Source: Nitrospirota bacterium | Lineage (GTDB): Bacteria > Nitrospirota > UBA9217 | Reading direction: 5' to 3' | Assembly: GCA_013334545.1 (NCBI GenBank) | Contig: JAAXXJ010000007.1 | Coordinates: forward strand, 3,319 to 27,318 | DNA length: 24,000 bases | Translations under genes and position numbers: made by a program | Notes under the pieces: model-generated | Seen by the model: only the letters and a program-made list of their open reading frames with translations | Databases searched by the model: none | Told to the model about the DNA's origin: nothing | In this document: in pieces, positions 1 through 13,152 of the stretch | Layout: every line of letters starts with the position of its first letter | Position numbering within the stretch: position 1 is the stretch's first letter

Positions 1-84
1 GGAGAACTTCTCCACCACGAAGCCGAAGGCCATGATGGAGATGCTCGTCCGTATCCACGCCAGGAATGTCCGCTCGTTCGCCAT
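1..84 (-). CDS. DUF202 (YidH-like) membrane protein, N-terminal 28 codons; gene continues off the left edge
   Basis: The reverse complement of 1-84 reads [31 protein letters not shown]. The [10 protein letters not shown] stretch followed by a hydrophobic helix is the hallmark N-terminus of the DUF202 family. The ORF is open to the window edge and absent from the ORF track because it is truncated. Confidence 0.6.
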
Positions 85-153
85 GTGAACACGGCGGTCC
101 CGTGCTTTGGTCGTTGAAATATCCCTCACGGGACCTTCCCTCACGTTCCTCTC

Positions 154-741
154 CTATCCTTCGATCAGCTTGAACATCCCGCTCCGGATCAGCTTGACCG
201 CGATGGCGGCGAGGAGGAGCGCCGCGACCTTGGCAAAAGCGCGCGTGCCGCCGATGCCCATGAATTTGATGATGCGCTCGGCCTGGGCGAAAATGAGCCA
301 GGCAAGCAGGATGTTGGCGATCAGCGAAAGGATGACCGGCGTATACCCGTAGCTCCCCACGAGCACCAGCGTGGTGGTGAGGGTGGCGGGGCCGGCGATG
401 AGGGGCGTGCCGAAGGGCACGACGCCGAAGGTAGGGGAAGCGGCGTGCTTCTTCTCGGCCGCCTGGACGATGTCCTGGATGGCGATGATCAGGAGCACGA
501 TGCCGCCGGCGATCATGAAATCCTCGACCATGATGCCGAGCGCCCGAAACACCGCCCTTCCCAGAAAGACGAACCCGATGGTCACGAGGAACGCCGTGAT
601 GATGGACTGGCGGATGATGGTCCGGCGCTCGTGCTTCTTGATGCCTTCGGTCATCGCCACGAAGAGCGGGAGCGTCGCCGGCGCGTCCAGCGCGACCATG
701 ATGGGAATGAGGCAGACCAAGAAATCGTTCAGCAGTTCCAT
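154..741 (-). CDS. marC: MarC family (UPF0056) integral membrane protein
   Basis: 195-aa ORF that is hydrophobic throughout, with about 6 TM segments. Size and layout are typical of the MarC/UPF0056 family (N-terminal ...LIPIMVALDAPATLPLF..., central charged loop, C-terminal ...PLIAGPATLTT...). ATG start; it lies downstream of the terminator at 829-878, so it is probably transcribed separately. Confidence 0.75.
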   Translation of the reverse strand: MELLNDFLVCLIPIMVALDAPATLPLFVAMTEGIKKHERRTIIRQSIITAFLVTIGFVFLGRAVFRALGIMVEDFMIAGGIVLLIIAIQDIVQAAEKKHAASPTFGVVPFGTPLIAGPATLTTTLVLVGSYGYTPVILSLIANILLAWLIFAQAERIIKFMGIGGTRAFAKVAALLLAAIAVKLIRSGMFKLIEG

Positions 742-828
742 GGATCGTGTCCTGGTGAAGAGGGGAGATAGGGTATGGAGAGAAGTATATCGGATGGCGG
801 CCGTTCTGTCCAGCCGGATGCGCCGGCA

Positions 829-878
829 TCAAAAAAGAAAAGGGCCGCTTGCCTTCGGGAGGCGGCCCGTGTTGTTTC
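829..878 (-). terminator. Rho-independent terminator ending the cytochrome/radical-SAM operon
   Basis: The minus strand reads GGGCCGC-ctcccgaaggcaa-GCGGCCC followed by TTTTCTTTTTT. The 7-bp GC stem is at 872-878 / 842-848 and the T-run corresponds to plus-strand 831-841. It sits 46 nt after the stop at 924. Confidence 0.75.
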
Positions 879-923
879 AAGGTGTGCTCGTTGGTCCATA
901 CCTGCCACCATGGTTCGCGCAGG

Positions 924-2426
924 TCAGACCTTGATCTTTTCCAGCATCTGATGGATCTCCTTCGGCATGACGCCCCTCATGGTCTTGGCGAGGTACGAAC
1001 TGGTGGCTATGATGTGGACCACCTTGATCATGAACTCTCTTTTTCTCGGGCTCATGGCATCGAGGGTGTTCATCTTGTGCATGTAGAAATCCCGTGCCGC
1101 CATGCCGAGCTCCTTTGCCACCTCCTCCAGGGTCATGTTCTTTGGCTTGACGACCGGTTCGACAAGGTTATACCTGCGGTAATCAAAGACCGCCACGTGC
1201 TCCCTGAGCGTGGGGTAGATCTCGGAATAGGGCCAGGGCGCGATCGCCAGAAAGAATGCGAGGTCGGGATTATAGAACTTGGCCAGTTCCACGGTCTTCC
1301 GCATTCCTTCCGCTGTATCATCGGGCATACCGAGCACAAAGGATGTTTCGGAAACGATGTCGTGGGCATTGATCAGATCAATAGCCCGCTTGGACTCCTC
1401 AACCTTGATGTTCTTGTTGAACAGGTCGAGCATCGCCTGATCCGTGGCCTCGACGCCCACGTAGATATGATCGACATGGGCTTTTTTATACTTCTCCATG
1501 ATATCCTCGTCACGGAGGATATCATCAACGCGGGTTTCCATAAGGATCCTGGTGCCCAGGTCCCGCTCGATCAACAGGTCGAGGATCCTTTCCCATCGCT
1601 TGCGGTCAAGCGTCGGCGTCTCGTCGGCGAACATGACCACGTTCACACCGTACCTGCCCCGCAGGTGTTCGAGCTCCGCAACGACGTTCTCGGGGCTCCG
1701 GCCCCGCCAGTTCCTCTGCCAGAACAGCTGCTGGGAGCAGAAGCTGCACCGCTGACTGCATCCGCGCGAGGTGCTGACAATGGCCAGCACCGAGTGCTCC
1801 ATGGGCTTGTACGTATAGATCGGCCAGTCCACGAGGTCCCATGCCATGGGCAGGCTGTCCAGGTCTTTGATGAAAGGCCGGGGAGGCGTGACGCTGACAG
1901 AGCCATTCCGGGCAAAAGCGATGGACCGCACCGAGGAGGGATCGCCATCGTTGGATATACAGTTGATGAGATCGACGACCGTTTCCTCGCCTTCACCCAT
2001 GACGATGTAGTCAACGGGATTGCCCTTCGCCGTCAGGATCTCGTCATAACAGTAGGTCGGGTGCACATTCCCGATGATGGTAATGATCCGGGGATCGATC
2101 TCTTTGGCCAGGGTGAGGACCTTGAGGGCATCCACGATCTCAGCGGTAAAAGCCGTGGTCCCTACCACATCAGGCTTCTCTGCTTCGATCCTCCTGCGGA
2201 TGTCATCATAGGTGTGCCAGTGGCTCATGGCATCGTATATGACCGGCTCATATCCGGCTGCCCGAAGGCTGCCCGCAAGATAGACAAAGGCGACATTCAT
2301 CCATACGCCCGCCGATTCAACAACACCGGAATGGTAGGGCGGGGTGATGAGCAGTATTTTCTTTATTCGATTTGTCATGCAATCCTTCTGTAAATACCCG
2401 ATGCTGTTTCTTGTGAGGCTGTTCAT
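924..2426 (-). CDS. B12-binding domain radical SAM protein (class B rSAM, DUF4070-like C-terminus)
   Basis: 500-aa ORF. The N-terminal Rossmann-like segment KKILLITPPYH...VGTTAFTAEI...IIGNVHPT fits a cobalamin-binding domain. The radical SAM cluster motif is present as STSRGCSQRCSFCSQ (CX4CX2C). The ATG at 2426 overlaps the upstream stop as ATGA. An alternative ATG at 2378 (MTNRIKKILLI...) is preceded by GAAGGA. Confidence 0.85.
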   Translation of the reverse strand: MNSLTRNSIGYLQKDCMTNRIKKILLITPPYHSGVVESAGVWMNVAFVYLAGSLRAAGYEPVIYDAMSHWHTYDDIRRRIEAEKPDVVGTTAFTAEIVDALKVLTLAKEIDPRIITIIGNVHPTYCYDEILTAKGNPVDYIVMGEGEETVVDLINCISNDGDPSSVRSIAFARNGSVSVTPPRPFIKDLDSLPMAWDLVDWPIYTYKPMEHSVLAIVSTSRGCSQRCSFCSQQLFWQRNWRGRSPENVVAELEHLRGRYGVNVVMFADETPTLDRKRWERILDLLIERDLGTRILMETRVDDILRDEDIMEKYKKAHVDHIYVGVEATDQAMLDLFNKNIKVEESKRAIDLINAHDIVSETSFVLGMPDDTAEGMRKTVELAKFYNPDLAFFLAIAPWPYSEIYPTLREHVAVFDYRRYNLVEPVVKPKNMTLEEVAKELGMAARDFYMHKMNTLDAMSPRKREFMIKVVHIIATSSYLAKTMRGVMPKEIHQMLEKIKV

Positions 2427-2770
2427 TTGTACACCATGACATATTGCCAGAAGATGCCGGCGCTGAATACCGCAGACAGCAGGAGATGCTTGATAACGAG
2501 CATGCGTTTTCTCAGCTTTTCGGCATCATCTCCGTAAATATTTCCCACATAGGAGTAGGTGAACATCCTTCCGGCGCCTGCGGCAAGCACCGTCGTGACA
2601 CAGACGAGACCGATAAAGAAGAATTGTTCCTTGAGGCCGAAGAGCAGTCCACCGATGCCTTTTTCCTGTTCTATGCGGTGCACCCAGTACACGGCCAATA
2701 CCGAAGCGGCCCAGCATCCGGCGGCAAAGTCGTGGAGAAATCCGATGAATATGGTAAAGGCCTTTTTCAT
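2423..2770 (-). CDS. small integral membrane protein, unknown function (about 3 TM)
   Basis: ORF 2423-2809. I prefer the ATG at 2770 (MKKAFTIFIGFLHDFAAGCWAASVLAVYW...); the longer form starts at a TTG at 2809. It has three hydrophobic segments and I recognise no family. Its stop overlaps the rSAM start (ATGA), implying translational coupling. Confidence 0.55.
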   Translation of the reverse strand: MKKAFTIFIGFLHDFAAGCWAASVLAVYWVHRIEQEKGIGGLLFGLKEQFFFIGLVCVTTVLAAGAGRMFTYSYVGNIYGDDAEKLRKRMLVIKHLLLSAVFSAGIFWQYVMVYK

Positions 2771-2839
2771 GCACTCGTTCGTTGGAGCGCTCGTTCGTAA
2801 CGGTTTCAACCCGTGATCCGAGAAGCGGGCCGTTGGAGC

Positions 2840-3322
2840 TCAACGTTGTGTATCAGTACCTTCCTGGTCCAGGAAAATATTTTCAAGCACCTTCACCTTC
2901 ATTACTTTCCAGGCGGCCCCAACCCTCACGCATTCATACTGAAGTTTCATTGCAGCCTGAATGATCTGACCGGGATTGCCGCCCGGTTTCAGAGGACGGT
3001 CATAATATCGCCATTGCTCCATGGTTTCAATGAGTTGGGAATCGGGACCGGTTGTCTGGGCGCTCACGATTTCAAGGCGTTCGAGCGTGGCTTCCAGCAC
3101 TAGGCCGCTGCCCCTTTTCGTTGTTACCAGCACGCCGACAATGCGCGCCTCCCGTTCGCCTGCAACATCAGCGAGCCTGGCCGTATCTCCTGTCCTGTGC
3201 GCCATAATGACGGCGCTGTTGTAGGAACGAACGATCTTTAAAGGGTCATCGGCTCGCGTGCAGGCAAAGTCTGCCAGGACAAACGCCGCACTGATCAGAA
3301 TGAATGTCCTGAGCTTAATCAA
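2840..3322 (-). CDS. secreted or lipoprotein of unknown function (160 aa)
   Basis: A TTG start directly abuts the ccsA stop (TAATTG). The N-terminus MIKLRTFILISAAFVLADFAC|TRADD looks like a signal peptide ending in Cys. The rest is soluble with mixed alpha/beta character and no motif I can name. The next in-frame Met is at codon 40 and would remove the signal peptide. Confidence 0.55.
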   Translation of the reverse strand: MIKLRTFILISAAFVLADFACTRADDPLKIVRSYNSAVIMAHRTGDTARLADVAGEREARIVGVLVTTKRGSGLVLEATLERLEIVSAQTTGPDSQLIETMEQWRYYDRPLKPGGNPGQIIQAAMKLQYECVRVGAAWKVMKVKVLENIFLDQEGTDTQR

Positions 3323-4144
3323 TTATCGACCTACCATGTAGGAATTATGAATCGTCGGAACCAGCAAGGTGACGATATACAACACCATGATCGCGAAACC
3401 GAACGCGACAAGCGTGAGATAGGCCATAGGGCGTCCGGACCAGCGATGGATAACCCGTAAGTGCAGGATTACGCCGAAGGCGATCCAGGCCGCCAGAGAA
3501 CTCGTTTCTATGGGATCCCAGGCCCAGTATCTCCCCCACGATTGGTGCGCCCAAAGCGATCCTGCCGCGATCATCACCCCGAGAAAGAAGAACGATACCA
3601 ACAGGAACTGGTGGCTGTAGCGGTCAAGTTTCTCTGCAGAAGGCAGCATGGACAGTCTCCGGTCTGCGCCCCTTTTTATCAGGTAGGCGACAGCGCAACC
3701 GGCAGCAAGCACGATCGTTGCAGCGAAGGCTTTTGCAAATCCGATATGCAGCAAAAGCCAGTAGGACTTGAATATGATGGGAACTTCATACTTGAGACCA
3801 TAGGCGCTGACCGCCCATCCCATGAGAAGAAACACCGCGGGCAGCACCATGGCTCCCAAGCCTTTCAACTCTTTTCTAGCCTGAACCACCCCGACAAACA
3901 TTGCAACCAGGACGAATGCGTTCGCGGACAGGACTTCGTAGCGGCTGCTGTACGGCCCGTGTCCCACCTCGACCCATCTCATTCCGAGCGAAACCGCGTG
4001 CGGGACAAGGGCCAGGAGGGTCAATCTGAAACCCCAGGCGCCGGCCAATTCCCGCTTAAATGCCGCCCAGATAAAAAAACTTGCCGTGGCGAGCGCATAC
4101 AGGGTCACGGCGGTCCAAAAAGAAATCGATTGGGCTATCATCAT
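3323..4144 (-). CDS. ccsA: cytochrome c biogenesis System II heme-handling protein CcsA/ResC
   Basis: 273-aa polytopic membrane protein carrying the tryptophan-rich WWD signature (LWAHQSWGRYWAWDPIETSS) and flanking conserved His residues (VPHAVS..., ILHLRVIH). It lies directly downstream of resB. Start is ATGATG at 4144/4141 after GAGAGGA. Confidence 0.9.
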   Translation of the reverse strand: MMIAQSISFWTAVTLYALATASFFIWAAFKRELAGAWGFRLTLLALVPHAVSLGMRWVEVGHGPYSSRYEVLSANAFVLVAMFVGVVQARKELKGLGAMVLPAVFLLMGWAVSAYGLKYEVPIIFKSYWLLLHIGFAKAFAATIVLAAGCAVAYLIKRGADRRLSMLPSAEKLDRYSHQFLLVSFFFLGVMIAAGSLWAHQSWGRYWAWDPIETSSLAAWIAFGVILHLRVIHRWSGRPMAYLTLVAFGFAIMVLYIVTLLVPTIHNSYMVGR

Positions 4145-4207
4145 TCCTCTCTCATGCGGTGCAGCTTGAACTCAGCGCAATGACGTACTATGAATGCCGG
4201 TACATTA

Positions 4208-5446
4208 TCAGGTTTTACGGTTCTTAAAGCGATACCAGTCATCTGCAAGATTATTCTCATCCTGCGTAAGGTATATCCGCATTGTTCCGGTCGTGTCTTC
4301 CTCAGCGGCAATTCCCGCAGGAATCAGCATGACAGCAGTGCCCGCCACTAAAAGCACGAAACCGAAGAATACCATTGAAACACCGGGGGATCGAGAATAG
4401 GTAAAGCCAGCCCAGTGGCTCAAGGAAACAATTCTTGCTGTCTTGCCACCGAATGCGAAGGGCCGGCCAAGCGTTAGTTCCGTTTTCACTTCTTCCCGAA
4501 GGTGATAAACGCGGAGCTTGCCGGTCCCGAGCGGATCGCTGATATCACGCTCAGCGTCAACGGAAAAGAGTATTGATCCTCCAGAGGGGTCTTTGAACTC
4601 ACCTGCCGATCGTCTTAGTGATTCCTGTCTGAGATGAAGGCTGCGCAGACCCAACCCTTGAATCTCGACATTCAGTGCAAGGCCGAAAGGGATGGCTTGA
4701 TAGATCGATACTCCATTGATGCTCACACCCTCGGATCGGTCCAAAATGGTCCGCTGCTCGCTGTCTTGCGTTCGGATCACCACCGTGCTCGCCCGGTCGG
4801 GCGCATAACCCTCCTGGTGGAGATAGGGATCGAACTGTTCAAGAGCGAGCTGAATAGGGGGTAGAGCAGATGCGGCGAAGAGGCCTGCATTCCGGTCGAA
4901 AATCACGCCGCGATCGGACAAGCGGACAATTTCACCTTCACCGATCTCGAACGAACCGGCATCATGATAGGCCTGTTGCACCAGTATTCCCAAAATCAGC
5001 AGCACGAGCCCGACATGGAAGAGCCAGCCCCTGGTCAGCGCGAAGCGGTTTCTAAAATAGGGTGGGCTGCTTTTCGTGCGGAAACCCTGTTCTTTCAGAA
5101 ACGTGGTGAAATCGCGTTCCGTTTTGACTGCTAGAACTTTTCCGCGCTGGGGGATGTTTCCCTTTAGGAGCGTCCATGCACGGCCCGTACGTTCGATCGT
5201 GCAGGCGAGGGTATTTGCGAGGAGCAAAAAAACGGCGACCAGGAACGGCGCCGAGCTGAATGGCCGGTCAAGACCGGCTGCCAGGGCCCAGCTCGGGGCT
5301 TTTACGGATCGATCAAGGTTCCAGGGAAGCCAGGAGACCACGCCGATGAAGGTCGCCAGAATGATGAGAATTGAGAGAGCAAGGCGCGGCGAAGAAAGGA
5401 AGCTCCCAATCCTTTTCCGCCGCGCCTGATCGTCCATTAACGTCAT
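4208..5446 (-). CDS. resB: cytochrome c biogenesis System II protein ResB/CcsB
   Basis: ORF 4208-5452 (TTG); I prefer the ATG at 5446. It has an N-terminal basic stretch then a TM (RRKRIGSFLSSPRLALSILIILATF...), a second TM pair, a large soluble (periplasmic) domain and a C-terminal TM (VFFGFVLLVAGTAVMLIPAG). This is the ResB topology, and the gene pairs with ccsA. It starts 7-13 nt after the cytochrome stop. Confidence 0.8.
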   Translation of the reverse strand: MTLMDDQARRKRIGSFLSSPRLALSILIILATFIGVVSWLPWNLDRSVKAPSWALAAGLDRPFSSAPFLVAVFLLLANTLACTIERTGRAWTLLKGNIPQRGKVLAVKTERDFTTFLKEQGFRTKSSPPYFRNRFALTRGWLFHVGLVLLILGILVQQAYHDAGSFEIGEGEIVRLSDRGVIFDRNAGLFAASALPPIQLALEQFDPYLHQEGYAPDRASTVVIRTQDSEQRTILDRSEGVSINGVSIYQAIPFGLALNVEIQGLGLRSLHLRQESLRRSAGEFKDPSGGSILFSVDAERDISDPLGTGKLRVYHLREEVKTELTLGRPFAFGGKTARIVSLSHWAGFTYSRSPGVSMVFFGFVLLVAGTAVMLIPAGIAAEEDTTGTMRIYLTQDENNLADDWYRFKNRKT

Positions 5447-5459
5447 GCCCAATGATACG

Positions 5460-7940
5460 TCAGTGGCCCGAGCCGTTGCAGCCGCAATTACTTCGGGTCC
5501 AGTTTGTCGTATTATTCGCCGGATAGCTATTTATGTACAGCCTGTCGCCAGTGGCCGCTCTCATGTAGGGCGCGGAATTCACCGCTGTCGGAGGAGGAAC
5601 TCCCGCGCCCCGGCCAGCCGCAGAATGGAGAAGTCCTGGATGTTCACTGCCATGCGGTATCATGACGTGGCATTTCGAGCAGGCGATACTGTGGTCGCCG
5701 CGCGAGTGTTCCGGGAAACGGCCATTGCCGTCGTTGTTTGCGTGGCAGTTCAAGCAGAAGGTCCCTGCTGGCATCCATGCATTATTCGACAAACTCGCTA
5801 TTGTGGCATTCCATGTTGTGTTCGGGCCCTTCAGGATGAAGTTAGCGGCCGAACCATGCGGTCCGTTCGGATCCGTGATTGTATCCGAAGCGTGGCAATC
5901 TGAACAGGTCATGAAGCTCGATGTTGTCCAAGGTGCGATAATATTGTTTGTTCTACCGAGGTTATTCGTGGCTGCAGCCAAAACAGGATGGAATGAACCG
6001 GCTGTCTCGCCGCTTGCCCAAGCACCTGCATAGCTGCCGACATTATTCGGATTGAACTCCCGTGCCACGTCGGTCATGGCATAACTGCCGGATGGGGAGG
6101 TGGTGTTGTACGTTCCCGAATACACGGTATGGCACTTGAAGCACAGGGTCGCCTCAGGATCGGTACCGGAAACGATCGTTTTCTGCGTAAAGTTACCCGC
6201 TGTGGGCGCAATCCAGAAGCCCGGGTATGTTGTGAATGCAGCGCCGGTGGCTCCATTCAGAACTCCTCCCGCGGCATTTGTCTGCGCAGTATGGTTGCCT
6301 GCCTTGGCCTGGTGTGCACTATGGCAGTCACTGCATTTCTCGGAACTGTGCTTTCTCGTTTTTCCGAACTGCGTCTGGATATTGCTGGTCGCGCCGTTAG
6401 CCACCGTGGTCCCATGACAGTTGTAGCAGAAGTTACCCGCGTTCGTGGCAAGATATGCAGCGATCGTTGTATCGTAGGTGAACCGCATCATCTTATATTG
6501 GCCGGAGCCGTGGGCATTCGCAGTGCCTGCATTGCCATGACACGCCAGGCAGCCACCATATACACCATTCACACTATGCGCCTGCTGCGCCGCTGTCCAG
6601 CCGATGTTCGCGGGAGACGTGTTGTCTCCGGCCACACTAAAGGGTGAAAGCGCGTTGCCGCCGAGCCTAGTTGCTCCCGTGCCGTCGTGACAGCTGGAGC
6701 AGACCTGTTCTATCCCTGCAGGCGTGGTTGCGACATAGTTCCCCGGCGTTTTGGGGTCTCTCAACTGAACATTCGGCGATGCAGGTGCGCCTGCCGGATG
6801 TCCAAAATCGGTCACCAAGTCGCCATGGCAGACTGCGCAGGCATCTCTGTTCACGATCTCCGCCGTCGTTCCATCGGTCACATGGTGGTAGGTCTTTACG
6901 AAATCTCCGCTCGATCCGGTTACGACCCTGCGTCCATTCCGGGAAGAGCGGTGACAGGAGACGCAGTCTCCCGCCTGGCCATGGCAGAGCGTATTGTTGA
7001 AGCATCCCGGATTAGCTCCCGGTGGAAGTGGAGCATAGACAGGAGTCGGTGGATTTCCCAAGTGACAAAGCCCGCAAGCCGGGGCATTGGTCTCATCAGT
7101 CGTTGGGTGTTTCCTTGTCGACGTCGACTGCCACGGGAAGGCGTGGGGAGAATCCACTCCGGCGCCATGACAGCCGCCCGTGTTCAGGCAGGTGGGCGCA
7201 ATACCAGCACCGGCGAAATTATCCCCGTGGCAGCCCTGGCAGGAACTGAAGCCTGTCGCGGCCTTTGCGGCTGCTCCGTGAGCAGCAGGGTCGTTCCAGC
7301 CGGGAGCGTGCCCTACCTGGCCGTGGCAAAGGGTATTATTGAAGCAGCCCGGCGTCCCGGCTACAAGATTCGTTGGAACGGGGACCGACGTCAAGTTGGC
7401 ACCAAGTGCATGACAATCGGCGCAAACTGCTGCATTTCCTGTATTCGTGTCTGTATGCGTTCGTGCACTGCCCGCACTTGTACGCCAAGGCGTCGGCGAA
7501 TGCGGAGAATCGACCGTCGCGCCATGACAGCCGGCCGTGTTCAAACAAGTGATCGCGAAGCCTCCGGAAAAATCCGCTCCATGGCAGTGCCCGCAGTCGG
7601 CGAATCCCGTGCTTGAGGAGGGGGCTGCTTTCGCTTCAGCTCCATGCTGTGCTGGATCGTTCCAGCCTGCAGGATGCGCATGGCAGGATATACCATTAAA
7701 GGAAGCTGAATAACAGCTTACCCCGGATATGCCGCCCGTAAGGTCGGAACCGTGGCATTCTGTGCACTGGCTCGCGTCCGAGAGAAATACCGCCGGGTGG
7801 TCCGCGACCCAGTTGTCAGGGTGCTTCCCTGTTTTGGAATCAAATATCGCGCCGCCCTTGCGCGCATCGGTGCAAGCGCCGGCCAGCAGCAACAGCCCGA
7901 TGCTCAGGGTGAAGCCAATTCGCACGCTTATCGATGACAT
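5460..7940 (-). CDS. large multiheme c-type cytochrome, probable lipoprotein (15 CXXCH plus 4 CX5CH plus 1 CX9CH)
   Basis: ORF 5460-7949 (GTG); the ATG at 7940 is preceded by GAGAGGTG. Signal peptide: ...TLSIGLLLLAGAC|TDARK. I counted 15 CXXCH motifs by eye: CTECH, CGHCH, CADCH, CQGCH, CGLCH, CVSCH, CAVCH, CSSCH, CLACH, CYNCH, CSDCH, CFKCH, CSDCH, CLNCH, CSKCH. Also present are CLNTAGCH, CFNNTLCH (twice), CLNTGGCH and CYSASFNGISCH. The remaining sequence is Gly/Ala/Thr/Asn-rich and not hydrophobic. Confidence 0.9.
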   Translation of the reverse strand: MSSISVRIGFTLSIGLLLLAGACTDARKGGAIFDSKTGKHPDNWVADHPAVFLSDASQCTECHGSDLTGGISGVSCYSASFNGISCHAHPAGWNDPAQHGAEAKAAPSSSTGFADCGHCHGADFSGGFAITCLNTAGCHGATVDSPHSPTPWRTSAGSARTHTDTNTGNAAVCADCHALGANLTSVPVPTNLVAGTPGCFNNTLCHGQVGHAPGWNDPAAHGAAAKAATGFSSCQGCHGDNFAGAGIAPTCLNTGGCHGAGVDSPHAFPWQSTSTRKHPTTDETNAPACGLCHLGNPPTPVYAPLPPGANPGCFNNTLCHGQAGDCVSCHRSSRNGRRVVTGSSGDFVKTYHHVTDGTTAEIVNRDACAVCHGDLVTDFGHPAGAPASPNVQLRDPKTPGNYVATTPAGIEQVCSSCHDGTGATRLGGNALSPFSVAGDNTSPANIGWTAAQQAHSVNGVYGGCLACHGNAGTANAHGSGQYKMMRFTYDTTIAAYLATNAGNFCYNCHGTTVANGATSNIQTQFGKTRKHSSEKCSDCHSAHQAKAGNHTAQTNAAGGVLNGATGAAFTTYPGFWIAPTAGNFTQKTIVSGTDPEATLCFKCHTVYSGTYNTTSPSGSYAMTDVAREFNPNNVGSYAGAWASGETAGSFHPVLAAATNNLGRTNNIIAPWTTSSFMTCSDCHASDTITDPNGPHGSAANFILKGPNTTWNATIASLSNNAWMPAGTFCLNCHANNDGNGRFPEHSRGDHSIACSKCHVMIPHGSEHPGLLHSAAGRGAGVPPPTAVNSAPYMRAATGDRLYINSYPANNTTNWTRSNCGCNGSGH

Positions 7941-8371
7941 GTTCTGCACCTCTCATTGTTCTGATACCCGTGGCAGGGGAAGCAGGACGCGGGGTCCAGC
8001 TTGCCGTCGATCTTGTGCTGGTTCAGGTAATCCCCACGGTGCGGCATCGTTCTCTGCGGGGCATCCTTGTACTTATCACTGGGCTTCAGCTCTTCCTTGT
8101 TCGCGTGGCAGTCCGCGCAGAAGGCCTGCGTGTGGCAGAGCTCGCAGGTCCGCTTCTGCTGGGCGGCCGAGAACTGGTGCCGGCTGGCCCAGTTCTCCCG
8201 GTGGTCCATGGAGGTGCGCCAGTCGGTGTGGCAGTTGCTGCAGACCGGCATGCCCTGCACCTCCATGGGGTGCTTCGCCGGGAGGCTCTGCGTGGTCGCG
8301 CAGGCGAACAGGATGCCGGCGATCATCATTGCCATACTGCCGAGGATCAGGGTCTTTGCTGTTCCGCTCAT
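7928..8371 (-). CDS. small pentaheme c-type cytochrome, probable lipoprotein
   Basis: 147 aa. Signal peptide MSGTAKTLILGSMAMMIAGILFAC|ATTQS. Five CXXCH motifs (CSNCH, CELCH, CADCH, CFPCH, CRTCH) fall within about 120 mature residues. ATG at 8371 after AGGAGAGG. The 3' end overlaps the next cytochrome start by 13 nt. Confidence 0.9.
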   Translation of the reverse strand: MSGTAKTLILGSMAMMIAGILFACATTQSLPAKHPMEVQGMPVCSNCHTDWRTSMDHRENWASRHQFSAAQQKRTCELCHTQAFCADCHANKEELKPSDKYKDAPQRTMPHRGDYLNQHKIDGKLDPASCFPCHGYQNNERCRTCHR

Positions 8372-8394
8372 GGCCTCTCCTGAATGGTGCTGCC

Positions 8395-9708
8395 CTAGGG
8401 CTTCTTCCCGCCGGGCTTTGCGGCGCCGGCGGACGGCGCAGTCTTGGCCGCTCCGCCGAGCTTTGCATCGAAGTTATAGACGAAGTTCAGCATGCCGCGT
8501 ACTTCCCGGATGACGTCGGGATTCGAGACGTACTCCACATCGGCGACGACACGGGTCCTTGGTGAGAAGGTGTAACCTGCGGCAGCGGTCCCCGTGTAGG
8601 CATCTGACACGCCGTTGACCGGCTGATCGTAGGACACATGGACGAAATCGAGGGTTATATCCGCTTTGGCGATCTTCTTGAACACGTACACGCGCTGATC
8701 ATCGTAGCAAAGGTCGTCGGACGGCCCGTTCATGCGATGCAGGGCGACCCCGGCGCCGAAGCCGGCGCCCGTGTACACGACGCTGCCTCCCCCATAGGTC
8801 GCCGAATCGTTCAGGACCTGGTAATCGTAGTTCCGATAATCAGCAATGACCGTGACCGGCCCGCCGATGGTTATGGCGATGCTCCCGCCGGCCATGGTGA
8901 CGATCTCGTTCGGATCGATGTTCGTGAACGAGAAGGCGCTCATCAGCATGCTCTGCGTGGTATTGACCGCCGAGAAATATTCTTTATACCAGGTCTTTGA
9001 GGCGTTGAGGTTCAGGCGGAACCATGCAAACGGGCCGATTGCTGCGTGATACTGGTGCTGCATCCAGTTCTTGGACGAACCGTTATAGGACGATGTGCCC
9101 ATGAGCTCCAGCTTGCTCAGCGGCCTGATCCACAGGTCAAGGCCCTCTTCCTTGCGGAAGTCCTTTCCGTCGTTCTTTTCCTTCAGGTAGGACACGCCGA
9201 TGGTGTAGATGCCGGGCAATCCCTGGGAGACCCTGCCGCCGTACGCTGAATCCCCAGAACGCGTGTCGCCGTCGGTCTCGACGGGATTGCCGCCATATGC
9301 CGCGATGGTGAAACCGCCCTTGAGGTCCGTGCGGGCATAGGCACCGTCGATCTGCGCTGAGGCGACCCCCTCATTTACCCGGAGCCTCCCGAAGCTCAGC
9401 GCCGAGTTGCCGGTTTTCCTTTTCAGGGTCACATAGGCGTACTGGAGGTCTCCGGTGGATGTTGAGCCAAACTGCTCGTTCTGCAGATCATACCGGTACC
9501 ATCCTCCGAAATGGAATGAGACGGCATCAGAGCCTGTTTTGCCGGCTGTGAAGCTGAGATATTCATACAGCGGCAGGTACCGCGTGCCATCTGTGGCCTG
9601 GCTGGACTGAAGATAGGTGCGTGACTGCCCCGCAAGGTCGACGGCTGAAGCGGTAAGGGGGAGCGAAACAAGGAGGGACAATGATGCGGCGACGCGAAGT
9701 GATCTCAT
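8395..9708 (-). CDS. outer-membrane beta-barrel (porin-like) protein
   Basis: 437 aa. Sec signal MRSLRVAASLSLLVSLPLTASA|VDLAG. The sequence is rich in alternating aromatic/polar beta-strand patterns (YEYLSFTAG, VSFHFGGWYRYDL, YAYVTLKR, FTIAAYGG, YTIGVSYLK, ADITLDFVHVSY, AAAGYTFS). A beta-signal-like ...GMLNFVYNF is followed by a 24-aa Lys/Ala/Gly/Pro tail. It is the first gene of the operon. Confidence 0.75.
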   Translation of the reverse strand: MRSLRVAASLSLLVSLPLTASAVDLAGQSRTYLQSSQATDGTRYLPLYEYLSFTAGKTGSDAVSFHFGGWYRYDLQNEQFGSTSTGDLQYAYVTLKRKTGNSALSFGRLRVNEGVASAQIDGAYARTDLKGGFTIAAYGGNPVETDGDTRSGDSAYGGRVSQGLPGIYTIGVSYLKEKNDGKDFRKEEGLDLWIRPLSKLELMGTSSYNGSSKNWMQHQYHAAIGPFAWFRLNLNASKTWYKEYFSAVNTTQSMLMSAFSFTNIDPNEIVTMAGGSIAITIGGPVTVIADYRNYDYQVLNDSATYGGGSVVYTGAGFGAGVALHRMNGPSDDLCYDDQRVYVFKKIAKADITLDFVHVSYDQPVNGVSDAYTGTAAAGYTFSPRTRVVADVEYVSNPDVIREVRGMLNFVYNFDAKLGGAAKTAPSAGAAKPGGKKP

Positions 9709-9767
9709 GCTTTCATGCTCCTCGGGAGGGGAGTTTTCACCACAGATACCGCATCTATTGCAAAACT

Positions 9768-9796
9768 ATTGTATAGATTCTTCCTGGCCGTGTCAA
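9768..9796 (-). promoter_or_regulatory. sigma70-type promoter of the barrel-cytochrome operon
   Basis: The minus strand reads TTGACA (9796-9791), a 17-nt spacer, then TACAAT (9773-9768). It lies about 60 nt upstream of the ATG at 9708. The 7-bp inverted repeat ACTATTG/CAATAGT (9765-9771 / 9794-9800) overlaps both hexamers. Confidence 0.65.
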
Positions 9797-9851
9797 TAGT
9801 GCTCACGGTGATCCTGATCACAAAAATGATTCCAGCCGGGTGTCCACGGAC

Positions 9852-9969
9852 GAATCCAGGAGCGAGTGCATTCCCCATTGCTTGCTGCGGGGTTAGCGAG
9901 CAATTAGAATAAATAGTAACTACCTTGAGGATCGAAGATTTCCTGCAGCTTGCTGCAGGGAGCTTCAAT
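9852..9969 (+). repeat. interspersed ~117-bp repeat element, copy A
   Basis: By hand alignment it is about 90% identical to 13000-13116 in the same orientation (roughly a dozen differences including one indel). It contains the direct repeat AGCGAGC (twice), an AT-rich core AGAATAAATAGTA and a terminal hairpin CCTGCAG-cttg-CTGCAGG. Sequence beyond both ends is unrelated. Confidence 0.85.
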
Positions 9970-12729: not shown

Positions 12730-13044
12730 ATGTCGCCACGGTGCAAGAAACCGCGGAACTGCCGATGCACCTTTAAGGGCAAGGCCTTCAAGCCTACCTG
12801 CGTCCCTATGGCAGAGGTCGAGCAGATCCCCCTCCTGCGGGAGGAACTCGAGGCCTTAAAGCTCTGCGATCTGGATGACCTCACACAGGCGGAAGCCGGC
12901 ATGAAGATGAGGGTGTCGCGAGGGACCGTTCAACGAATACTTGCTGTTGCACGGAAGAAGGTTGCGAAAGCGCTGAGCAAAGGCCAGGCCATCGTATTTG
13001 AATCCAGGAGCGAGCGCATTCCCCGTAGCTTGCCGCGGGATTAG
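12730..13044 (+). CDS. DUF134 (UPF0251) family predicted DNA-binding protein
   Basis: MSPRCKKPRNCRCTFKGKAFKPTCVP...IPLLREELEALKLCDLDDLTQAEAGMKMRVSRGTVQRILAVARKKVAKAL matches the DUF134 pattern: a Cys/basic N-terminus, FKP, then a sigma-70 region 4-like HTH. The last ~15 codons and the stop lie inside repeat copy B. Confidence 0.85.
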   Translation: MSPRCKKPRNCRCTFKGKAFKPTCVPMAEVEQIPLLREELEALKLCDLDDLTQAEAGMKMRVSRGTVQRILAVARKKVAKALSKGQAIVFESRSERIPRSLPRD

Positions 13045-13116
13045 CGAGCGATGAGAATAAATAGTACAACCTTGAGGATCGAAAATTCCCTGCAGCTTGC
13101 TGCAGGGAGCTTCAAT
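13000..13116 (+). repeat. interspersed ~117-bp repeat element, copy B
   Basis: Same element and orientation as 9852-9969. It spans the 3' end of the DUF134 CDS and most of the spacer before the NifX-like gene. The terminal hairpin is CCCTGCAG-cttg-CTGCAGGG (8 bp). Confidence 0.85.
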
Positions 13117-13152
13117 AATCGTCGAAGAAACCATCCTAAGGAGGAACTGCAC

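Follow-up and report, generated by a model that had tools for sequence, protein, structure and literature searches.

Why should a bacterium that already encodes a canonical System II pair for cytochrome c maturation carry a further one inside a cytochrome operon? The question is raised by a stretch of 24,000 nucleotides (nt), hereafter the window, from a Nitrospirota bacterium (GenBank assembly GCA_013334545.1, contig JAAXXJ010000007.1, positions 3,319 to 27,318), in which the genes of a ResB/CcsB-like protein (P0002) and of a CcsA protein (P0003) stand directly 3′ of the gene of a multiheme cytochrome (P0001) whose heme-binding sites include the unusual spacings CX5CH and CX9CH. The first-pass annotation of this locus had taken the pair to be a possible dedicated lyase for these long-spaced sites. 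Comparison with related genomes and metagenomes points instead to the other half of the cytochrome: with a probability of roughly 0.6, we read P0002/P0003 as a second System II cytochrome c synthase that is client-linked to the UetJ-like undecaheme domain of P0001 and was moved horizontally. The features on which this reading turns are the following, in window coordinates.

5460-7949, minus strand: multiheme cytochrome P0001, 829 amino acids (aa), with 15 CXXCH, one CX9CH and four CX5CH sites
6969-7949, minus strand: N-terminal repeat module of P0001 (residues 1-327), holding the CX9CH and all four CX5CH sites and typical of the bacterial family
5460-7073, minus strand: UetJ-like undecaheme core of P0001 (residues about 292-829)
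4208-5452, minus strand: ResB/CcsB-like protein P0002, 414 aa, PF05140
3323-4144, minus strand: CcsA protein P0003, 273 aa, PF01578
2840-3322, minus strand: lipoprotein P4, 160 aa, with lipobox Cys21
2423-2809, minus strand: small membrane protein, 128 aa, with about three transmembrane (TM) spans, from the list of open reading frames (ORFs) and crude hydrophobicity; lies within the cassette
2367-7057, no strand assigned: the cassette, made up of the C-terminal ~530 residues of the cytochrome, ResB, CcsA, P4 and the small membrane protein
924-2426, minus strand: BchE-like B12-binding radical S-adenosylmethionine (SAM) enzyme, PF02310 and PF04055, at the operon tail and outside the cassette

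What the pair is tied to can be read from a natural exchange between two genomes of the same genus. The operon of genome G002 is colinear with that of the window, and blastn against its locus L024 gave 88-96% identity at window positions 1-2366 and 7058-9855, with no similarity across positions 2367-7057. This block, the cassette, has a GC content of 0.52-0.58 as against about 0.60 in the flanks at 1-1000 and 7001-9000 (0.57 at 1001-2000), and its counterpart in G002 is unrelated sequence that holds a CcsA only 32% identical to P0003 and belonging to a clade specific to the bacterial family. The boundary of the exchange falls inside the cytochrome reading frame: residues 1-327 of P0001 share 72% amino-acid identity with the G002 cytochrome, in which a different C-terminal part then follows. 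Since the N-terminal module was kept while the C-terminal part and the CcsA were swapped, the lyase tracks the C-terminal half of the cytochrome and not the odd motifs, the pair having been inherited as a block with the 11-heme half. The nearest relatives of the cassette lie outside the window's bacterial family. A repeat of about 117 bp was also seen at window positions 9852-9969 and 12999-13118, with copies in the G002 operon at L024 7647-7718 and 9173-9270; one of the G002 copies adjoins the CcsA gene there, near one edge of the exchanged block.

The part of the cytochrome that belongs to the cassette is an undecaheme core, for which the alignment partners are the undecahemes of uet-like clusters and of Nitrospirota loci. 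Each full-length aligned member has eleven sites in a common set of columns, and the sites of the P0001 core match 10 of these 11 (none at column 328), with one more at column 222. In BLASTP, residues 266-823 of the window cytochrome matched the 11-heme protein of the uet-like locus L085 with an expectation (E) value of 7e-16, and a profile of the C-terminal domain (C-domain) scored 130-180 bits against the undecahemes of uet-like loci. Residues 361-829 show 43% identity to the C-terminus of a 2488-aa cytochrome at locus L142, in a metagenome-assembled genome (MAG) labelled as a delta proteobacterium, and the two proteins share the ending NCGCNG(S/T)GH. All aligned core sites are CXXCH both in the window and in the Pseudomonadota type. 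The non-canonical sites of P0001 are a CX9CH at residues 79-89 and CX5CH at residues 135, 202, 254 and 316, the last of which (316-322) lies within the span of the core and on none of its 11 columns. In one Nitrospirota group, a sister clade, core site 6 is CX12CH, CX13CH or CX16CH, and site 3 is CX3CH in some members.

The extreme C-terminus of P0001 (window 5460-5489) reads ...SNCGCNGSGH, nearly identical to the endings at L048, L059 and L142. The wider undecaheme family retains two C-terminal cysteines, spaced by 1 to about 25 residues and in many clades trailed by a His 1-5 residues further on; a CGC at the very end of the chain is unusual. A hidden heme site at this Cys pair was considered and rejected as the main explanation, given its variable spacing and the existence of whole clades without a following His (in the uet type, ...CGG..W..C.NPP). 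It is probably a disulfide.

The association between synthase and undecaheme domain extends well beyond this operon. A cytochrome with the C-domain, then ResB, then CcsA, and mostly also P4 and a BchE-like gene, is the order at most of 13 further loci from other Nitrospirota families. The same cytochrome-ResB-CcsA order, again with P4 and a BchE-like gene as the usual followers, occurs in about 20 metagenome contigs (CcsA identity 57-85%) and in MAGs labelled delta proteobacterium, Acidobacteriota, Actinomycetes, Anaeromyxobacter, Lentisphaeraceae and Geobacter. MAGs of ANME-2 (anaerobic methanotrophic archaea) and Methanoperedens also have the ResB/CcsA pair, with a BchE-like gene in Methanoperedens, and no cytochrome with the undecaheme C-domain was detected beside the pair in them. 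Across 46 loci from many phyla, CcsA distances correlate with the distances of the undecaheme C-domain (taken as the last 300 cytochrome residues), with a Mantel r of 0.79 that was reached in 0 of 999 permutations. The three loci nearest to the window are the same for CcsA (60-63% identity) and for the C-domain (58-62%).

That the window pair comes on top of a general system became evident when the entire assembly was searched for PF01578 and PF05140. The genome (G000) is a MAG of 550 contigs, 93.5% complete with 7.3% contamination, and it contains four CcsA-family genes: the window copy, one on contig C364, a HemX-like copy adjacent to hemA, and a 233-aa type on contig C113. Contig C364 encodes a canonical ResB (342 bits to PF05140) and a 415-aa CcsA that passes TIGR03144, the model of the housekeeping CcsB (284.8 against a cut-off of 187.6). 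With this second resB/ccsA locus in hand, for which the first-pass annotation had advised a search, the window pair is an additional one and not the sole maturation system of the genome. No System I genes were found in the assembly by the PF01578 search, which does detect System I in control genomes. P0003 scores 136.2 bits to TIGR03144, under the equivalog cut-off of 187.6, and is 32% identical to the C364 CcsA over about 100 residues. Contamination as the source of the C364 pair was considered and rejected: its CcsA is 90.6% identical to the orthologue of genome G001, and in our tree it lies 0.02-0.04 substitutions from the orthologues of the same-genus genomes G002 and G005.

As for the remaining two CcsA-family genes, the HemX-like copy stands beside hemA, hemC and cobA and is split across contigs C344 and C545, which have an identical overlap. 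The CcsA fragment on C344 was for this reason rejected as a missing clade-B copy, being the 5′ end of the HemX-like gene of C545. On C113 (positions 2885-4328, locus L003) the 233-aa CcsA-like gene, which scores 158.9 bits to TIGR03144 (under the cut-off), is followed by a 241-aa ResB-like gene. This type is kept across the family, with orthologues in G001, G002, G005, G014 and G021 and no cytochrome nearby, and its CcsA forms a long-branched clade of its own.

CcsA trees were inferred from 116 sequences (LG+G4) and from 78 sequences (LG+C20 mixture), with support from the Shimodaira-Hasegawa-like approximate likelihood ratio test (SH-aLRT) in quick searches. In both trees the housekeeping, HemX-like and C113 types are split, with an SH-aLRT of 99, from the CcsAs of multiheme cytochrome clusters, which are roughly 275 aa long. 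The earlier suspicion that the window pair differs from the housekeeping system is thus borne out by its place in this separate, cluster-associated radiation, and by its failure against TIGR03144. Three clades within the radiation have a support of 100 each. The clade of P0003 has ResB, P4 and undecaheme-type cytochromes as neighbours and otherwise consists of metagenome contigs and one MAG labelled 'uncultured delta proteobacterium', at 57-66% identity (85% for one partial contig); a second is restricted to the window's bacterial family, its own genus included; and a third, from Pseudomonadota, is the uet type, from which the window is separate. The relationships of the host do not follow those of the cassette: P0003 is 64% identical to the CcsA of the 'delta proteobacterium' MAG as against 36-40% to those of Nitrospirales MAGs, whereas for HemA the order is reversed, at 44% and 52-54%, respectively. 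The HemA values fit a Nitrospirota host. Judged by these identities, the history of the cassette is incongruent with that of the housekeeping genes.

The proteins themselves look fit for the task. In agreement with the first-pass annotation, the pair directly 3′ of the CX5CH/CX9CH cytochrome is real, both ORFs being intact and both Pfam matches lying above their cut-offs (58.5 bits to PF05140 against 24.6 for P0002; 94.8 bits to PF01578 against 29.9 for P0003). P0003 aligns to the CcsBA of Helicobacter hepaticus (PDB 7S9Y) with an E value of 1.7e-15, H133 corresponding to P-His1 (H761), H228 to TM-His2 (H858) and H266 to P-His2 (H897), and the WWD stretch is present at W198-E213. These histidine and WWD positions are invariant in an alignment of cluster-type, uet-type and family-specific CcsAs. 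In P0002, the TM3 histidine within 'WLFHVG' is invariant across an alignment of 16 ResB types (canonical, clade A, clade B and uet-type), and a crude scan gave four hydrophobic spans, which fits the layout TM-TM-TM-periplasmic domain-TM. The periplasmic domain is short compared with that of the 505-aa housekeeping ResB. P0002 is 41% identical to the ResB of L142 and 71% identical to that of metagenome contig L058, and its sequence matches no solved structure. As far as sequence can tell, the pair keeps all four heme-handling histidines and the WWD domain, with no sign of a degenerate copy.

Do the odd motifs nevertheless explain the pair? A motif-specialised lyase acting on the CX5CH and CX9CH sites of the N-terminal module, in the manner of NrfI or CcsA1, would fit several observations. 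The pair adjoins the only CX5CH cytochrome of this genome, in which a separate housekeeping system exists, and specialised System II lyases beside their own substrate are already established (reviewed in PMC12285233). All cytochromes in view that belong to the CcsA subclade of the window (window, L048, L059, L056 and L142) have at least one CX3CH, CX4CH or CX5CH site, and the CX12CH, CX13CH or CX16CH at core site 6 in the sister clade implies that the responsible synthase tolerates odd spacing. The wider distribution of the module speaks against it. Of 64 genomes of the family, 23 have the CX5CH/CX9CH module. At 13 such loci, retrieved in most cases with some 7 kb of flank to either side, the cytochromes have one to six CX5CH sites each, frequently accompanied by CX9CH and CX4CH, and neither CcsA nor ResB was found at any of the 13. 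Genome G001, of the same genus and 97% complete, encodes a 603-aa cytochrome with two CX5CH, two CX4CH and one CX9CH site, and its CcsA-family genes are only the canonical pair, the hemA-adjacent HemX-like copy and the C113 type, with no cluster-type CcsA. By search, G023 and G020 show the same pattern, of which the hemA-adjacent copy was the part fetched and confirmed there. The other CX4CH cytochromes of the window's own genome are on contigs without a lyase, and the related uet-type CcsAs adjoin undecahemes with eleven canonical sites.

The pattern is consistent with CX5CH/CX9CH motifs being made in cells that have the general System II only, though absence in MAGs is never certain. Motif specialisation is argued against by the natural cassette swap, in which the same module is paired with a different CcsA clade in G002, together with the lyase-free relatives, and we hold it to be quite improbable. 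The proposal that the long-spaced sites are the reason for the pair thus found no support, the module lying on the conserved side of the exchange; the pair may still act on these sites as well, though our comparisons lend this no support. We found nothing specific in the literature on a described CX5CH site. The family-specific CcsA clade (L024 of G002, L023 and L025-L029) stands beside giant CX4CH/CX5CH-rich cytochromes wherever a cytochrome is visible, with a different B12 radical SAM gene near its loci; no member of this clade was found in the window's genome. Were any of these lyases tied to CX4CH/CX5CH motifs, that clade would be the better candidate.

The synthase tied to the undecaheme domain could be pictured as follows. 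The CcsB/CcsA pair would export heme and attach it to cytochromes, as one member of a large radiation found inside clusters of extracellular-electron-transfer cytochromes. Its conserved client would be the UetJ-like undecaheme domain, that is, roughly the last 540 residues of P0001, and synthase, client domain, P4 and small membrane protein would have entered the operon together as one cassette. The pair would be co-expressed with the undecaheme-type cytochrome, adapted to it, and moved with it between genomes. It may act preferentially on the adjacent cytochrome, probably at all sites, as the chain emerges, leaving the housekeeping ResB/CcsA encoded on C364 to serve the remaining cytochromes of the cell.

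One alternative to such adaptation is that the pair is a general synthase with no client preference, which travels with the cassette so that recipients can mature the cytochrome, and which adds capacity for the 20-site cytochrome and its five-heme neighbour. The catalytic residues of the pair are indeed all standard, the core of the client is canonical CXXCH, the cassette is horizontally mobile, and maturation genes have been reported as passengers of mtrCAB clusters elsewhere (PMC8805035). Mere capacity, however, does not readily account for a radiation that is old and deeply diverged from housekeeping CcsA (at the 32% identity given above), that stays linked to the same cytochrome domain across phyla, even in hosts that already have System II, and that has gained a clade-specific lipoprotein partner, sometimes fused to ResB. 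Co-adaptation fits the age, the linkage and the gain of the lipoprotein better than spare capacity, and we consider a passenger copy unlikely.

Several points weigh against a client-linked synthase all the same. The case for a client preference comes from synteny and co-inheritance, both of which partly track organismal descent, and part of the Mantel correlation must reflect shared descent of the hosts. The sites of the core are all canonical CXXCH and should in principle be manageable for the housekeeping synthase, so that it is hard to see why a dedicated enzyme would be needed. Gene counts are lower bounds, the genome being a fragmented MAG; the tree support values are SH-aLRT from quick searches; and we infer the direction of the cassette exchange between the window genome and G002.

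The partner genes bear on what else the pair might do. Homologues of P4 adjoin CcsA in most members of the clade and lie between ResB and CcsA at some loci, and in a Lentisphaeraceae MAG (L153:5342-7009) a single 555-aa frame joins a ResB (residues 1-353) to a C-terminal P4 domain (381-518). The AlphaFold2 model of P4, with a predicted local distance difference test score (pLDDT) of 90, has an NTF2-like fold, for which the best matching folds are the intermembrane-space domain of ARC6/PARC6 and the C-terminal domain of Tim44, both peptide- or membrane-binding domains. P4 is probably an accessory subunit of the synthase.

The BchE-like enzyme scores 400 bits to TIGR02026, under the cut-off of 481. 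Its gene is 95% identical in G002, outside the swapped block, and recurs downstream of cluster-type CcsA in many phyla (L021, L034-L046 and L143-L156), including a Methanoperedens MAG. A relative of tetrapyrrole cyclases beside heme-attachment genes hints at an undescribed tailoring step on the cytochrome or its heme, and the literature held nothing specific on a cluster of BchE, ResB and cytochrome genes. A bolder idea, to which we give low odds, is that ResB/CcsA, P4 and the BchE-like enzyme form a self-contained mobile maturation kit, present in at least seven bacterial phyla and, for the synthase pair, also in ANME archaea. Such a kit would do to UetJ-like undecahemes what a generic synthase cannot, for example through a tailored heme or an unusual linkage at the C-terminal Cys pair in NCGCNGSGH.

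The same tetrapyrrole-cyclase-like gene in the operon could be taken to mean that the pair is not a lyase at all, and is instead a heme exporter or regulator derived from CcsA/ResB, similar to HemX, that feeds the radical SAM enzyme or some other process; CcsA-family proteins with non-lyase roles do occur in this genome, for example the hemA-adjacent copy. To this we give hardly any weight. P0003 retains the parts that hold heme for attachment, namely the periplasmic WWD domain and its two periplasmic histidines, a ResB partner with its TM histidine is present, and the window CcsA stands apart from the HemX-like group in the trees. A crude scan found neither a signal peptide nor a membrane span in the radical SAM enzyme, which would therefore act in the cytoplasm, before export.

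The second synthase that we propose is embedded in a longer gene row, in which two further genes precede the cytochrome.

8395-9708, minus strand: porin-like outer-membrane protein P0006, 437 aa, with a signal peptide; first gene of the operon
7928-8371, minus strand: pentaheme cytochrome, 147 aa, with five CXXCH sites, from a genome-wide motif scan (C539:11246-11689)

The minus strand from 900 to 9800 forms one apparent operon behind a promoter-like site at 9796-9768, upstream of the porin gene, which is strong in that it matches 11 of 12 consensus positions. With this one strong promoter-like site ahead of the porin gene, the whole gene row at 924-9708 is likely a single operon. The porin-like protein has no Pfam match and is 90% identical in G002. 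The pentaheme gene, situated between the porin-like gene and the 829-aa cytochrome, overlaps a slightly longer ORF on the plus strand (7934-8383) and is easily missed; similar pentahemes of 146-155 aa are encoded upstream of CX5CH-module cytochromes at five related loci. The N-terminus of the small membrane protein encoded at 2423-2809 has similar counterparts at loci of G002 and G005.

Translational coupling, which the first-pass annotation had ascribed to the pair and its cytochrome, holds up in part. From the TGA of the cytochrome gene it is 7 nt to the earliest start that ResB could use, a TTG at 5452, with alternative ATG starts at 5446 and 5437 (a gap of 7-22 nt), and inspection of the sequence at this junction showed no clear Shine-Dalgarno motif. 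Coupling by re-initiation is plausible there. Between ResB and CcsA, however, 63 nt separate the stop from the ATG, and CcsA has its own ribosome-binding site (GAGAGG), so that these two genes are not coupled. The TAA of CcsA abuts the TTG start of the P4 gene.

Extracellular electron transfer is wired through giant multiheme cytochromes, whose production in other hosts is a practical bottleneck. Should the undecaheme family bring along a synthase and accessory proteins of its own, as it seems to do, the genes of these helpers may be required for heterologous production and would mark mobile electron-transfer modules in metagenomes. More generally, a second lyase beside an odd-motif cytochrome should not be read as motif specialisation unless comparative or biochemical support is at hand.

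How does this locus compare with known systems? At the level of structure, the reference is the H. hepaticus CcsBA (PDB 7S9Y/7S9Z), to which the WWD domain and the three histidines of the CcsA part align, and in which TM-His1 would correspond to the TM histidine of the window ResB by its position in TM3. Unlike the H. hepaticus protein, the window version consists of two polypeptides with a much shorter periplasmic domain, and its ResB part is too diverged for a sequence match to solved structures.

The System II isoenzymes of Wolinella succinogenes are NrfI for CXXCK, CcsA1 for the CX15CH of MccA and CcsA2 for CXXCH, and in the passages of PMC12285233 that cite Kern et al. (2010) the odd motif alone is described as insufficient for NrfI or CcsA1; System II isoenzymes can therefore recognise more of their client than the motif. 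The window resembles this case in having several CcsA-family synthases per genome, with an extra one beside a particular cytochrome. The Wolinella enzymes, however, are the fused CcsBA of Campylobacterota with demonstrated motif specificity, whereas the window subunits are separate, the conserved part of their client is canonical, and no link to a motif was found. Mobile mtrCAB clusters, too, have been reported to take maturation genes with them (Baker et al. 2022, PMC8805035), a horizontal move along with an electron-conduit cluster as in the window; there the passengers are the System I genes ccmA-I, whereas here a System II pair is joined to part of a cytochrome gene.

Nearest to the window among described systems is the uet cluster of 'Candidatus Tenderia electrophaga' and other Tenderiales, also seen in Gallionella, in which ccsAB stand beside the undecaheme UetJ and have been proposed to mature the Uet cytochromes (bioRxiv 10.1101/2022.05.06.490989; PMC10734462). 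Our comparison was made on uet-like loci from metagenomes and MAGs and not on the Tenderia sequences themselves; Pseudomonadota loci among them (L085 by Pfam) have the uet make-up of three triheme c7 cytochromes, two NHL proteins, an undecaheme, ResB and CcsA. As in the uet cluster, a divergent System II pair stands beside an undecaheme outer-surface cytochrome on top of a general maturation system; the window core aligns at 10 of the 11 undecaheme sites, and the CcsAs belong to the same cluster-associated part of the tree. The differences are that the two CcsAs fall in separate clades (each with a support of 100), that no triheme c7 or NHL match was found among the six proteins of the window operon that were scanned, and that the general system of the host is System II and not System I. 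The window pair is further accompanied by the NTF2-like P4 and the BchE-like enzyme, and its undecaheme is fused to a CX5CH/CX9CH module. The notable detail of the window is this last one: the recombination boundary lies inside the cytochrome gene, and the protein is a chimera of a family-typical CX5CH module and an imported undecaheme core.

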